A stretch of DNA of 64,000 nucleotides, taken from NCBI RefSeq assembly GCF_044647545.1, contig NZ_CP172818.1; one strand, written 5' to 3'. Positions 58,625 through 60,847 of this stretch are shown one piece after another. The position numbers and the translations under genes are program-made. This DNA is from Escherichia coli. Its GTDB lineage: Bacteria > Pseudomonadota > Gammaproteobacteria > Enterobacterales > Enterobacteriaceae. The notes beneath the pieces are model-generated. The model saw nothing but the letters and a program-made list of their open reading frames with translations. It ran no database searches and was not told where the DNA came from. Position 1 is the first letter of the stretch. Each line of letters opens with the position of its first letter.

Positions 58625-58818
58625 GATCACCGTAATATTGCCGGATGGTGACGATTACGCGCGATTCGGCAATAATACGTTACAGTGTCACGTTTTTTTA
58701 TCTCTTAAAGCACGCACTGCTTTTGCGGCTGGCCTCTTTTGCCGCAAAATAGTCGCCCGTGTTTCATTGCCCATTTCTGCTCATGCATCATCTACACATC
58801 TATCCGGATCTGCGCACT

Positions 58819-60075
58819 ATGTTCCGCCGTCTGCTTATCGCAACAGTCGTCGGTATTCTCGCGGCCTTTGCCGTTGCCGGGTTTCGTCATGCAATGCTGC
58901 TACTGGAGTGGTTGTTCCTCAATAATGACTCCGGCAGTCTGGTCAATGCAGCGACAAATCTTTCCCCATGGCGACGGCTGCTAACTCCGGCGCTCGGCGG
59001 ACTGGCGGCGGGTTTGTTGCTGATGGGCTGGCAGAAATTTACCCAGCAACGCCCTCATGCGCCGACCGATTACATGGAAGCGTTGCAAACCGATGGTCAG
59101 TTCGATTACGCAGCAAGCCTGGTTAAATCGCTTGCCTCTCTGCTGGTAGTAACCAGCGGCAGTGCAATTGGTCGCGAAGGTGCGATGATTCTTTTAGCTG
59201 CCCTTGCCGCCTCCTGTTTTGCCCAACGTTTTACGCCACGCCAGGAGTGGAAATTATGGATCGCCTGTGGAGCTGCGGCGGGAATGGCTGCGGCCTATCG
59301 CGCCCCGCTTGCTGGCAGTTTATTTATAGCCGAAGTGCTGTTTGGCACTATGATGTTGGCCTCTCTCGGCCCGGTGATTATTTCCGCCGTCGTGGCGTTG
59401 CTGGTTAGCAATCTGATTAATCATAGCGACGCGTTACTCTACAGCGTACAACTCTCAGTGACGGTTCAGGCTCGTGACTATGCGCTGATTATCAGTACAG
59501 GTGTGCTGGCAGGTCTGTGCGGACCACTGTTGTTAACGTTAATGAACGCCTGTCATCGTGGATTTGTAAGTCTCAAACTTGCGCCGCCCTGGCAACTGGC
59601 ACTGGGCGGGTTGATCGTGGGTCTGCTTTCCCTGTTCACACCTGCAGTGTGGGGCAACGGCTATAGCACCGTACAATCCTTTTTAACCGCCCCGCCACTG
59701 TTAATGATCATTGCCGGGATCTTCCTCTGTAAACTGTTTGCCGTGCTGGCGAGTAGTGGTTCTGGCGCGCCCGGTGGTGTCTTTACACCGACGCTATTTA
59801 TCGGTCTTGCCATTGGCATGTTGTATGGTCGTAGCCTGGGATTATGGTTCCCTGATGGCGAAGAAATTACGCTTTTACTCGGATTGACCGGGATGGCGAC
59901 ACTGTTGGCGGCAACCACGCACGCGCCGATTATGTCGACGTTGATGATATGTGAAATGACCGGGGAGTATCAGCTACTCCCCGGTTTATTGATTGCCTGC
60001 GTAATTGCGTCGGTAATTTCGCGGACGTTACACCGTGACTCTATCTACCGCCAGCACACTGCGAAGCATAGCTAA
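58819..60075 (+). CDS. clcB: voltage-gated ClC-type chloride channel ClcB, 418 aa
   Basis: ClC selectivity motifs GSAIGREGA and GVFTPT; start at [11 protein letters not shown]... Confidence 0.9.
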
Positions 60076-60723
60076 GCGGATGTATTGCCCCAGTTCACGC
60101 TGTTCGGCGCGCGGCAGATAAGGCAGTTCACCAATGAGCGGTGCCGGAAGTTTTTTACCGAGCACATCAATGATTTCCGCATAATGCGCCAGTCCTGGAT
60201 TGATTCGGTTAGCCACCCAGCCAATGAGCGGTAGCCCGTCGTTGGCGATCGCCTGAGCTGTTAGCAGTGCATGGTTAATGCAACCTTCCTGAATACCGAC
60301 AACCATCAACACCGGCAGTTGTTCCTGCACCACCCATTCAGAGAGCGGACGCAAATCATTCATCAGACTGCGCCAGCCGCCAGTCCCTTCTACCACCACA
60401 TGATCGACTTTATCGGTCAGGTTTGCCAGGCCGTTTGAAATGAGGGTGTAATTGATTGGGCAACTGTGCGCCACGCTACTTTCTTCTTCGCTTAACGCGA
60501 TAGGATTAACTGCTTCATAAGGCAGTTCGATGGTTGAAACACTCTGCAACACCAGGGCATCTTTATTACGCAGCCCTTCGGGTGTCTCTTTGCTCCCCTT
60601 CGCTACGGGTTTATATCCCGCAACCGTTTTTCCCTGGGAGGCTAACGCTTGTAGCAATGCGCGGGAAACCACCGTTTTCCCTACAGAAGTGTCTGTACCG
60701 GTAATAAAGAAACGCTTCAGCAT
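60028..60723 (-). CDS. ynfK: dethiobiotin synthetase paralogue YnfK (BioD2), 231 aa
   Basis: P-loop GTDTSVGKT; 3' end overlaps the convergent clcB 3' end by 48 bp. Confidence 0.9.
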
Positions 60724-60847
60724 CACTAACTCCACCGTTATGCTTCACAAATATAAACCAGGAAAATAATTAACCTTGAAAGTCTAAGTTATGCTTTCCT
60801 GGCCCAAATTGAGATAGCGCAAATTTTGGTAGAACAGTTAAAAAATG

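Follow-up and report, generated by a model that had tools for sequence, protein, structure and literature searches.

What does it mean when two genes on opposite strands run towards each other and end inside one another, and where does the transcript of one of them come to its end? This question is raised by clcB and ynfK in a stretch of Escherichia coli DNA of 64,000 nucleotides, which we call the window and whose positions are used throughout. The coding sequences and the segment that they share are as follows.

58819 to 60075, plus strand: clcB coding sequence, 418 codons and a stop with the MG1655 start, based on the ORF list, annotation, Pfam and structural homology to ClcA.
60028 to 60723, minus strand: ynfK (bidA) coding sequence, 231 codons and a stop, a BioD paralogue, based on the ORF list, annotation, BioD structures and Pfam.
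60028 to 60075, both strands: shared segment, coding for ClcB residues 404-418 and a stop on the plus strand and for YnfK residues 217-231 and a stop on the minus strand.

The sequence and the ORF listing agree that the 3' ends have 48 bp in common, which is 15 sense codons and one stop for each gene. On the plus strand the clcB frame ends in ...CAT AGC TAA, with the stop at 60073-60075; on the minus strand the ynfK frame ends in ...ACG GTG TAA, and its stop is the complement of 60028-60030. The codons of the two genes are exactly in register, such that position 1 faces position 3 and position 2 faces position 2. A first-pass annotation had claimed a convergent overlap of this length at this place, with one piece of DNA coding for both C-termini, one on each strand, and it was right on both counts: the stops can be read in the sequence, and the reference annotation matches them. 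Comparison of the stop codons with the reference had been set beforehand as the test of this claim, and it showed no earlier stop in either gene. In MG1655 (NC_000913.3), clcB occupies 1665315..1666571 and bidA (b1593, the same gene as ynfK) 1666524..1667219, again with 48 bp of overlap and with each stop codon inside the coding sequence of the partner. The RefSeq annotations of FDAARGOS_497, a 100%-identical strain, and of a K-12 derivative likewise have clcB ending 48 bp within 'bioD', which is ynfK. An annotation artefact or an earlier stop as the source of the overlap was considered as well, and is ruled out by the direct reading of the stops and the match to MG1655. The overlap itself is ordinary and has long been annotated, and it leaves the known function of clcB and ynfK unchanged.

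Both partners are real protein genes, with orthologues that are 65-99% identical across 80 species. ClcB, for which PGAP places the start at 58783, has a Pfam Voltage_CLC domain (E = 7e-81, residues 60-402), matches ClcA structures in the PDB and carries the conserved tyrosine of the CLC family; the clcB product is a chloride transporter. YnfK belongs to Pfam AAA_26/CbiA, with AAA_26 over residues 3-207, and its residues 1-220 span the whole of the E. coli BioD structures (E = 5e-65), leaving residues 221-231 as an extra piece. This homology over the full length places it in the BioD (dethiobiotin synthetase) family, and the ynfK product is a biotin-pathway enzyme. Among the papers searched, none was found on the new name bidA.

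How special is the overlap? A stop in this register needs TTA, CTA or TCA in the opposite gene, and these codons are all rare (together 2.9% of codons in the 27 long ORFs of the window), so that both frames extend into each other. The chance that an in-register antisense frame stays open over 15 codons is about 0.64. The length of the overlap is unsurprising, and its conservation is the part that is not due to chance. The segment is found in 5410 of 5426 complete E. coli genomes. Across 80 species of Enterobacteriaceae ynfK always has 231 codons and stops at the same codon, and the two genes overlap in each of the 63 species whose clcB is intact, by 27-66 bp (48 bp in 33 species, 45 bp in 15, 66 bp in 11, 27 bp in three and 39 bp in one). 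In the remaining 17 of the 80 species clcB is lost or degraded, and the length of ynfK is unchanged there. This makes the overlap a conserved arrangement of the whole family and not a strain-specific loss of a stop. The sliding of the clcB stop among genera comes about because its place depends on which Leu or Ser codon of YnfK forms a stop on the opposite strand.

The shared bases are divided between the two proteins, and two features within them are needed here.

60046 to 60048, plus strand: codon for ClcB Tyr410, the counterpart of ClcA Tyr445 in the alignment; it faces a Val codon of the YnfK tail.
60031 to 60063, minus strand: YnfK-specific C-terminal tail, residues 221-231, past the BioD C-terminus (equivalent to YnfK 220).

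Per-site entropy in 64 sequences shows ClcB to be the main constraint on 60028-60057 and YnfK the main constraint on 60058-60075. ClcB 5-411 could be aligned to positions 36-446 of the Salmonella ClcA chain in 1kpl, which puts Tyr410 at chain position 445, and this column is invariant in 25 aligned orthologues. In ClcA, Tyr445 is the tyrosine that coordinates chloride. The Pfam domains of both proteins stop short of the overlap. In the AlphaFold models, confidence (pLDDT) falls below 50 at ClcB residues 412-418, and in YnfK it averages 50 at residues 221-230 and is below 50 at 226-231. The ordered end of each protein sits opposite the low-confidence tail of its partner: the ordered ClcB end (404-411, with the invariant Tyr410) faces the YnfK-specific tail, and the end of the BioD-like core of YnfK faces the last seven residues of ClcB. 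The interlocking reaches single codons, as ClcB Leu404 is fixed as TTA or CTA because the same bases are the ynfK stop. The YnfK tail has a constant length in the 80 species and keeps a 'DR' motif in 12 of 13 clcB-less species. An outgroup (L084, YnfK 65% identical) retains ynfM-ynfL-mlc-ynfK and lacks clcB; it still has a tail of similar length with a different sequence, so the tail is independent of the overlap. Coding constraint on the two proteins accounts for the conservation of the shared bases.

This bears on the idea that the overlap is a selected cis-antisense module, in which convergent, anaerobically induced transcripts lead to RNase III cleavage or to polymerase collision and interference, and so to reciprocal tuning of the kind reported for mscL-arfA. 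The first-pass annotation had pointed to possible transcriptional interference or antisense regulation, and for this functional part of its reading the support is indirect. The promoter side of this idea involves one further feature.

60809 to 60822, plus strand: FNR site TTGAGATAGCGCAA in the spacer between mlc and ynfK, where the anaerobic ynfK promoter region lies, an exact match to the site in PMC1802558.

FNR directly activates ynfK as well as ynfEFGH-dmsD, the operon that lies upstream of clcB (PMC3688515), transcription of the ynfK strand extends into clcB in antisense direction, where Rho restricts it (Adams et al. 2021), and the arrangement is kept wherever clcB is intact. There are also precedents: PMC10070815 describes antisense crosstalk between convergent E. 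coli genes, and bioRxiv 10.1101/2022.10.23.513370 describes polymerase collisions in convergent pairs positioned by stem-loops. Against this stand the constraints of the two proteins, which already explain the conservation of the shared bases, the drift of the overlap length, and the species in which clcB is lost or degraded while length and tail of ynfK stay as they were. In addition, mutual expression dependence of clcB and ynfK was not found in the papers searched that mention ynfK. We regard a cis-antisense module as unlikely.

There is no spacer between the genes, which would place the 3'-end signals of ynfK inside clcB. A candidate is present there.

59959 to 59985, minus strand: hairpin with a perfect 11-bp GC-rich stem, ACCGGGGAGTA / 5-nt loop / TACTCCCCGGT, within clcB codons T381-G389.

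The hairpin lies outside 60028-60075, beyond what the first-pass annotation had described. It lies 42 nt downstream of the ynfK stop and folds on the minus strand with -22.5 kcal/mol (z = -5.1); on the plus strand the fold has z = -3.8. Among 63 distinct sequences 93.1% of the stem cells are paired on the ynfK sense, compared with 38-44% in controls with the 3' partner shifted by one to three columns, with the caveat that related sequences may beat shuffle controls without any structure. At stem pair 52-66, 33 sequences have C-G and 23 have G-C, a swap that just one or two evolutionary events on the ynfK tree explain. In 64 sequences, clcB codons 358-403 contain about 20 four-fold sites; the three that vary least all belong to the stem (ACC and CCC with 0 bits, GGG with 0.70 bits), and the others mostly have 1.2-1.8 bits. 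Among the Pro codons of E. coli, CCC is the rarest. The protein contributes to the nucleotide conservation as well, as the stem encodes the very conserved peptide EMTG[E/Q]Y.LLPG. A corresponding run of frozen synonymous sites in ynfK was not seen in the per-site entropy, and a matching terminator for clcB within ynfK was not found either, the region downstream of the clcB stop showing no significant structure (z = -0.9). An Rfam scan of the hairpin at a permissive threshold returned just two sub-threshold chance matches and no known RNA family.

What happens to the stem when clcB disappears is informative. It persists after clcB loss in Trabulsiella, Lelliottia and four remnant loci, each time with the G-C or C-G variant of its own lineage, and in Trabulsiella and Lelliottia the sequence between the ynfK stop and the stem is deleted while the stem itself is retained. 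Two clcB-less genomes of the Citrobacter amalonaticus group (L017 and L010), and only these, have a run of U7-U8 after the stem. For L017 the fold, which is taken as the guide here, has a stem of 13 bp with a U-run after it; the consensus terminator scan returned no call at that locus. The terminators of the Citrobacter amalonaticus group could be separate inventions with a similar GC-rich stem.

These observations have to be set against the possibility that overlap and hairpin are neutral by-products of coding and common descent, with diffuse ynfK ends made by Rho. The overlap length is what the register predicts, the covariation is based on one or two events, the caveat on shuffle controls applies, and the Term-seq tables of Adams et al. 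2021 (aerobic LB, M63) contain no mapped 3' end at the hairpin. Such a neutral origin does not sit well with four-fold sites in ACC and CCC that are invariant in 64 sequences beside neighbours of 1.2-1.8 bits, nor with a stem that is retained despite a deletion up to the ynfK stop and that is followed by a U-run in two genomes. We consider it the least probable of the explanations weighed here.

A further question is which message the hairpin belongs to. G-U wobble asymmetry was used to look for the functional strand and gave no decision, since 90.8% of stem cells are paired on the clcB sense compared with 93.1% on the ynfK sense, a weak strand preference. The hairpin might serve the clcB message or the DNA and have nothing to do with ynfK, for example as an attenuator or bidirectional terminator that truncates clcB transcripts uncoupled from translation, or as a ribosome pause. 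On the plus strand TTTATTGATT comes after the E. coli stem, a T-rich arrangement that the consensus scan calls terminator-like, with no call on the minus strand; the plus-strand fold and one stem position that pairs (U-G) on the clcB sense only, in 29 sequences, fit as well. The T-rich tail is not conserved, though, being CTGCTG or TTGCTG in other genera, three other stem positions pair (G-U) on the ynfK sense only (44 cells), and the stem outlives clcB, in which case it comes directly after the ynfK stop. A role on the clcB side appears very unlikely.

On the ynfK side, the hairpin has one half of an intrinsic terminator: there is a GC-rich stem-loop shortly after the stop, and in E. coli the tail that follows it on the ynfK sense, CAUUUCACAU, is not a U-run. 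The Term-seq tables of Adams et al. 2021 (aerobic LB, M63) list no ynfK or clcB 3' end, and none at 16663xx-16665xx, with the exception of a Rho region, and the SMRT-Cappable-seq supplements give no 3' end for the hairpin region. The Rho region and a possible loading region for Rho are located as follows.

60018, minus strand: best-scoring coordinate within a region of Rho-dependent termination, MG1655 1666514 (-) in supplementary file 2 of Adams et al. 2021.
59750 to 59900, minus strand: candidate Rho-loading region past the hairpin, with C in excess of G on the ynfK-sense RNA.

Adams et al. 2021 class MG1655 1666514 (-) as 'primary ynfK, antisense clcB'. Reads at this position go from 85 to 11 without bicyclomycin and from 292 to 159 with it (Rho score 4.2, p = 1.5e-6), that is, read-through at the 3' end of ynfK rises under Rho inhibition. 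The coordinate is 10 nt beyond the ynfK stop and upstream of the hairpin, and is approximate because it was derived from 800-nt coverage windows. At 60-200 nt beyond the hairpin the GC skew on the plus strand is +0.21 to +0.24, which may also simply reflect that this RNA is antisense to a membrane-protein gene rich in G and T. Dar and Sorek (2018; PMC6061677) report that Rho-dependent transcripts end just past stable stem-loops without a U-run, with rut sites just downstream.

Taken together, we think it probable that clcB and ynfK form a genuine, ancient and mutually locked tail-to-tail overlap that is not a regulatory device, with the 3'-end signals of ynfK lying within clcB. These signals would be the conserved stem-loop 42 nt past the stop, which has no proper U-run, and Rho-dependent termination. 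The frozen synonymous sites, the swap between G-C and C-G, the survival after clcB loss and the published Rho region are the reasons why the hairpin is, on this comparative evidence, most likely a 3'-end element of ynfK. That it acts on the ynfK-sense RNA, and how, we infer: the stem-loop would most likely shield the Rho-terminated mlc-ynfK or ynfK mRNA from 3' exonucleases, and may in addition terminate weakly on its own. In clcB-less lineages the same stem persists, and with the U-run of the two genomes it resembles a classical intrinsic terminator. The overlap, its conservation, the division of constraint and the conservation of the hairpin are demonstrated, as is, through the published data, the sensitivity of the region to Rho.

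One could go further and propose that hairpin and overlap are a programmed site of collision or bidirectional termination inside two coding sequences, where FNR drives both units under anaerobiosis and the stem-loop fixes the meeting point of the polymerases. If true, transcription of ynfK would lower the amount of full-length clcB mRNA and lead to truncated non-stop messages, and vice versa, and chloride/proton transport would be coupled to anaerobic biotin synthesis. We find this improbable. A related case comes from Wang et al. (bioRxiv 10.1101/2022.10.23.513370), where convergent pairs similarly have one palindromic stem-loop near the gene ends that can fold on both transcripts. Their elements are described there as positioning collisions 'between gene boundaries', whereas the hairpin discussed here precedes the clcB stop by 90 nt, such that its use on the plus strand would truncate clcB. 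The mscL-arfA pair is another case of convergent E. coli genes with complementary 3' transcripts in which one of the two encodes a membrane channel or transporter, and PMC10070815 reports that mscL is regulated by arfA antisense RNA with involvement of RNase III. Compared with what is described there, the clcB-ynfK overlap takes in the coding sequence of both genes.

For the preferred reading, that of a locked overlap with a 3'-end element of ynfK inside clcB, there are closer relatives. Same-register convergent overlaps ('phase 0', bioRxiv 10.1101/2025.11.07.687268) are also made up of real genes that share their 3' ends, with stops defined by the codons of the partner and with termini under low constraint. 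The very short convergent overlaps highlighted in that work, such as those of 4 nt, are shorter than the one between clcB and ynfK, which is moreover retained throughout the family, the ynfK stop staying in place and the clcB stop sliding. The proposed 3'-end element resembles the protective stem-loops of Dar and Sorek (2018; PMC6061677) in being stable and GC-rich, without a U-run, placed after the stop, with a C-rich stretch, a candidate for Rho loading, further on, and located in a bicyclomycin-sensitive region. Unlike those cases, it lies within the coding sequence of a convergent gene, where it has to supply ClcB T381-G389 as well, and its 3'-end role is a proposal read from the sequence. 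The hairpin embedded in clcB is the new part, and adds one more case, a modest one, to a known kind.

For the Enterobacteriaceae, the locus offers a worked example of how 48 bases have long been shared by two proteins, with an ordered end set against a floppy tail in each. It would also show how a signal for the 3' end of ynfK can be written into the neighbouring clcB by the choice of synonymous codons, the invariant rare CCC Pro codon being one sign of this. In practical terms, when the 3' end of clcB is recoded, deleted or codon-optimised, the C-terminus, the stop or the transcript end of ynfK will be altered, and the reverse applies as well. A clcB knockout that takes out the last ~120 bp of the gene would not be a clean single-gene knockout.

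The convergent genes clcB (plus strand, encoding a chloride transporter) and ynfK (minus strand, encoding a BioD paralogue) overlap at their 3' ends. clcB terminates in ...CAT AGC TAA, with its stop at 60073-60075, and ynfK in ...ACG GTG TAA, with its stop on the complement of 60028-60030 (window sequence and ORF list). The following features are referred to in the text.

60028-60075, both strands: segment shared by clcB and ynfK, 48 bp (window sequence and ORF list)
60046-60048, plus strand: codon of ClcB Tyr410, inside the overlap, aligned to ClcA Tyr445
59959-59969 and 59975-59985: hairpin arms ACCGGGGAGTA and TACTCCCCGGT around a 5-nt loop, a perfect 11-bp inverted repeat
60809-60822: FNR site, as reported (PMC1802558)
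MG1655 1665315..1666571: clcB, reference annotation
MG1655 1666524..1667219: ynfK (now bidA), reference annotation

The first-pass annotation had claimed this 48-bp overlap, and both stops bear it out: RefSeq annotates the identical overlap in strain FDAARGOS_497, a K-12 derivative and MG1655, and no earlier stop exists in the reference. All three defining features of convergent overlapping genes were tested and found, and the pair clearly belongs to that class. A 1.4-kb query from the window is 100% identical to FDAARGOS_497 and present in 5420 of 5426 complete E. coli genomes; the 151 bp covering hairpin and overlap are present in 5410. Annotations differ in the clcB start (58783 and 430 aa in PGAP vs 58819 and 418 aa, MFRRLL..., in the MG1655 curation), and the earliest in-frame start in the ORF list is a GTG at 58759. 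PGAP records name the ynfK gene bioD, and the current NC_000913.3 lists it as bidA (dethiobiotin synthetase BidA); a literature search for the name bidA applied to this gene found no paper.

Codons of the two genes are exactly in register, position 1 lying opposite position 3 and position 2 opposite position 2. ClcB Leu404 (TTA) thus reads as the ynfK stop TAA on the other strand, and YnfK Leu217 (TTA) as the clcB stop TAA. An antisense stop in this register requires TTA, CTA or TCA on the other strand. Since these make up 2.9% of codons in the 27 long ORFs of the window, the probability of passing 15 codons without a stop is about 0.64. The length of the overlap is unremarkable, and its persistence across species is the part not due to chance; pure neutrality is the least probable of the readings considered here. 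The overlap alone is ordinary and was previously annotated. What appears to be new is the hairpin embedded in clcB and conserved across the family.

For the species comparison, one genome per species was scanned, giving 80 Enterobacteriaceae loci. YnfK has 231 codons in all 80, and an intact convergent clcB, present in 63, overlaps it every time.

Overlap of clcB with ynfK by locus
48 bp: 33 loci
45 bp: 15 loci (Salmonella, Citrobacter)
66 bp: 11 loci (Enterobacter, Leclercia and relatives)
27 bp: 3 loci
39 bp: 1 locus
clcB absent: 13 loci
clcB remnants only: 4 loci

Across species the ynfK stop stays put while that of clcB slides, its place being set by whichever Leu or Ser codon of YnfK forms a stop when read from the opposite strand; as an example, YnfK has Ser in Salmonella and Citrobacter vs Ala in E. 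coli. Where the overlap is 66 bp (L032, L038, L045, L050, L053, L054, L072 and L074-L077, from Enterobacter, Leclercia and Pseudenterobacter), the reading frame of clcB reaches further, since the Leu codon of YnfK whose complement serves as the clcB stop in E. coli is a different one there. In E. coli strain E69 (L004, 3670-3696) ClcB Gln codon 412 has become a stop, shortening the overlap to 27 bp, a length also found in two Superficieibacter species. Two records stand out by their titles: 'Chryseobacterium sp. 18061' (L037) has a typical Enterobacteriaceae ynfK-clcB locus, and the MAG 'uncultured Raoultella sp.' (L014) equals Citrobacter braakii (L015) in all stretches compared; going by these sequences, both assemblies are probably mislabelled or contaminated.

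YnfK is the better conserved protein (86-99% identity, against 65-97% for ClcB). Species lacking clcB keep the length of the YnfK tail and, in 12 of 13, its 'DR' motif, which points to some constraint of the tail's own. An outgroup YnfK (L084, 65% identical) has a tail of similar length and different sequence, in a locus that retains the order ynfM-ynfL-mlc-ynfK and has no clcB.

The shared codons appear to be divided between the proteins. ClcB has a Voltage_CLC domain (Pfam, residues 60-402) and aligns to ClcA structures; its residues 5-411 match 36-446 of the Salmonella ClcA chain, which places Tyr410 at ClcA Tyr445, the chloride-coordinating tyrosine. Tyr410 and Leu404 do not vary among 25 orthologues. 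Full-length E. coli BioD aligns with YnfK (E = 5e-65), but the match stops at YnfK residue 220, leaving residues 221-231 as an additional tail. The YnfK side of the overlap comprises the last four residues of the BioD-like core, this 11-residue tail and the stop, all opposite ClcB residues 404-418. AlphaFold models (mean pLDDT 91 for YnfK and 82 for ClcB) fall below 50 at YnfK 226-231 and ClcB 412-418, so the ordered end of each protein is predicted to face the low-confidence tail of the other. Per-site entropy in 64 sequences agrees, with constraint from ClcB (first and second codon positions) in 60028-60057 and more from YnfK in 60058-60075. A one-base difference at 60064-60066 (AAG in the window vs CAG in K-12) gives ClcB K416Q and is silent in a YnfK Leu codon (CTT/CTG); it supports the same division, ClcB taking the change in the part held by YnfK.

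The hairpin lies just outside the overlap, 42 nt beyond the ynfK stop and within clcB codons T381-G389. On ynfK-sense RNA it has a folding energy of -22.5 kcal/mol (z = -5.1), equalled by 0 of 200 shuffles. Among 63 distinct sequences 93.1% of pair cells are standard, vs 38-44% when the 3' partner is shifted by one to three columns. One stem pair is C-G in 33 sequences and G-C in 23, an alternation that as few as one or two events on the ynfK tree can explain; where ClcB has Glu (GAG) the partner Leu codon is CTC, and where it has Gln (CAG) the partner is CTG, so that a silent substitution offsets the amino-acid change. Codons 358-403 of clcB contain about 20 four-fold sites, of which the three least variable all fall in the stem (ACC and CCC 0 bits, GGG 0.70 bits; the remainder mostly 1.2-1.8 bits), with the caveat that the encoded peptide is also highly conserved. 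E. coli uses CCC less than any other Pro codon, so the invariance of CCC is not due to codon preference. Wobble pairs reveal a weak strand preference (93.1% vs 90.8% paired). On the plus strand (59958-59996) the E. coli hairpin is followed by TTTATTGATT in clcB sense and is picked out by a consensus scan as terminator-like, at a point 90 nt ahead of the clcB stop; other genera do not conserve this T-rich tail. The hairpin was not found described in the papers searched that mention ynfK, nor in Rfam.

The strongest argument linking the hairpin to ynfK is its persistence after clcB loss; a role intrinsic to clcB is unlikely. The stem is present in all four loci with clcB remnants. In two Trabulsiella species and Lelliottia the DNA from the ynfK stop to the stem is deleted and CCGGGCAG...CTGCCCGG is kept, in one Trabulsiella (L047) together with the flank CATTTCAC. 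Two clcB-less genomes of the Citrobacter amalonaticus group have ACCGGGGAGC...GCTCCCCGGT or GGGGAG...CTCCCC followed by U7-U8, the form of classical intrinsic terminators; the stem-loop of locus L017 reaches -33.3 kcal/mol (z = -6.2). At the switching pair, each clcB-less lineage matches its clcB-bearing relatives in being G-C or C-G, which fits descent from the hairpin embedded in clcB. Kosakonia and other clcB-less species have unrelated canonical terminators immediately after the ynfK stop.

In many clcB-less species (loci L010, L017, L033, L040, L057, L073) the gene convergent with ynfK ends in ...SSGRTRRALNIH and may be the ABC-ATPase/CBS-domain gene found downstream in the outgroup. In L041 dmsD lies directly opposite ynfK, and with the clcB-less arrangements this makes the ynfE-clcB block look like a gain/loss unit relative to mlc-ynfK. 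Enterobacter sp. kpr-6 has, on the 3' side of its ynfK (L073, 3697-3860), a very long and very stable palindromic structure of the repetitive extragenic kind, whose 163 nt fold at -95 kcal/mol.

A Rho-dependent termination region is tabulated by Adams et al. 2021 (PMC7815308, supplementary file 2). Its coordinate, MG1655 1666514 (minus strand), equals window 60018 and is approximate because it derives from 800-nt coverage windows. The region bears the label 'primary ynfK, antisense clcB' (Rho score 4.2, p = 1.5e-6), and read counts drop from 85 to 11 in the untreated sample and from 292 to 159 in the bicyclomycin-treated one. The curated Term-seq 3'-end tables of that study, which cover aerobic LB and M63 cultures, have no entry at this site. 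Dar and Sorek 2018 (PMC6061677) report that Rho-dependent transcripts end precisely just past stable stem-loops without U-runs, which shield them from 3' exonucleases, with rut sites just downstream. The stem-loop, the ynfK-sense tail that follows it (CAUUUCAC) and a C-over-G stretch downstream on the same RNA (59750-59900) would be consistent with that picture. Lacking a U-run, the hairpin is not a classical intrinsic terminator for ynfK; it would fit, on two features, as a candidate Rho-dependent protective stem-loop, a class for which the decisive feature would be a mapped 3' end.

FNR directly activates ynfK as well as the ynfEFGH-dmsD operon that lies upstream of clcB (PMC3688515), so convergent transcription should peak anaerobically. 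The first-pass annotation had raised transcriptional interference or antisense regulation. A dedicated role of this kind for the overlap, antisense or collision-based, is possible if improbable: the overlap length slides between species, and clcB has been lost repeatedly with ynfK unchanged, both of which count against it. We consider it rather likely that the overlap is instead a by-product, with the end signals of ynfK embedded in clcB. Two genes abutting in register would have become locked together, and the overlap would be maintained because altering either stop or the shared bases harms one protein. With no spacer between them, the signals ending the ynfK transcript, a protective or weakly terminating stem-loop together with Rho, would be encoded within clcB through synonymous codon choice.
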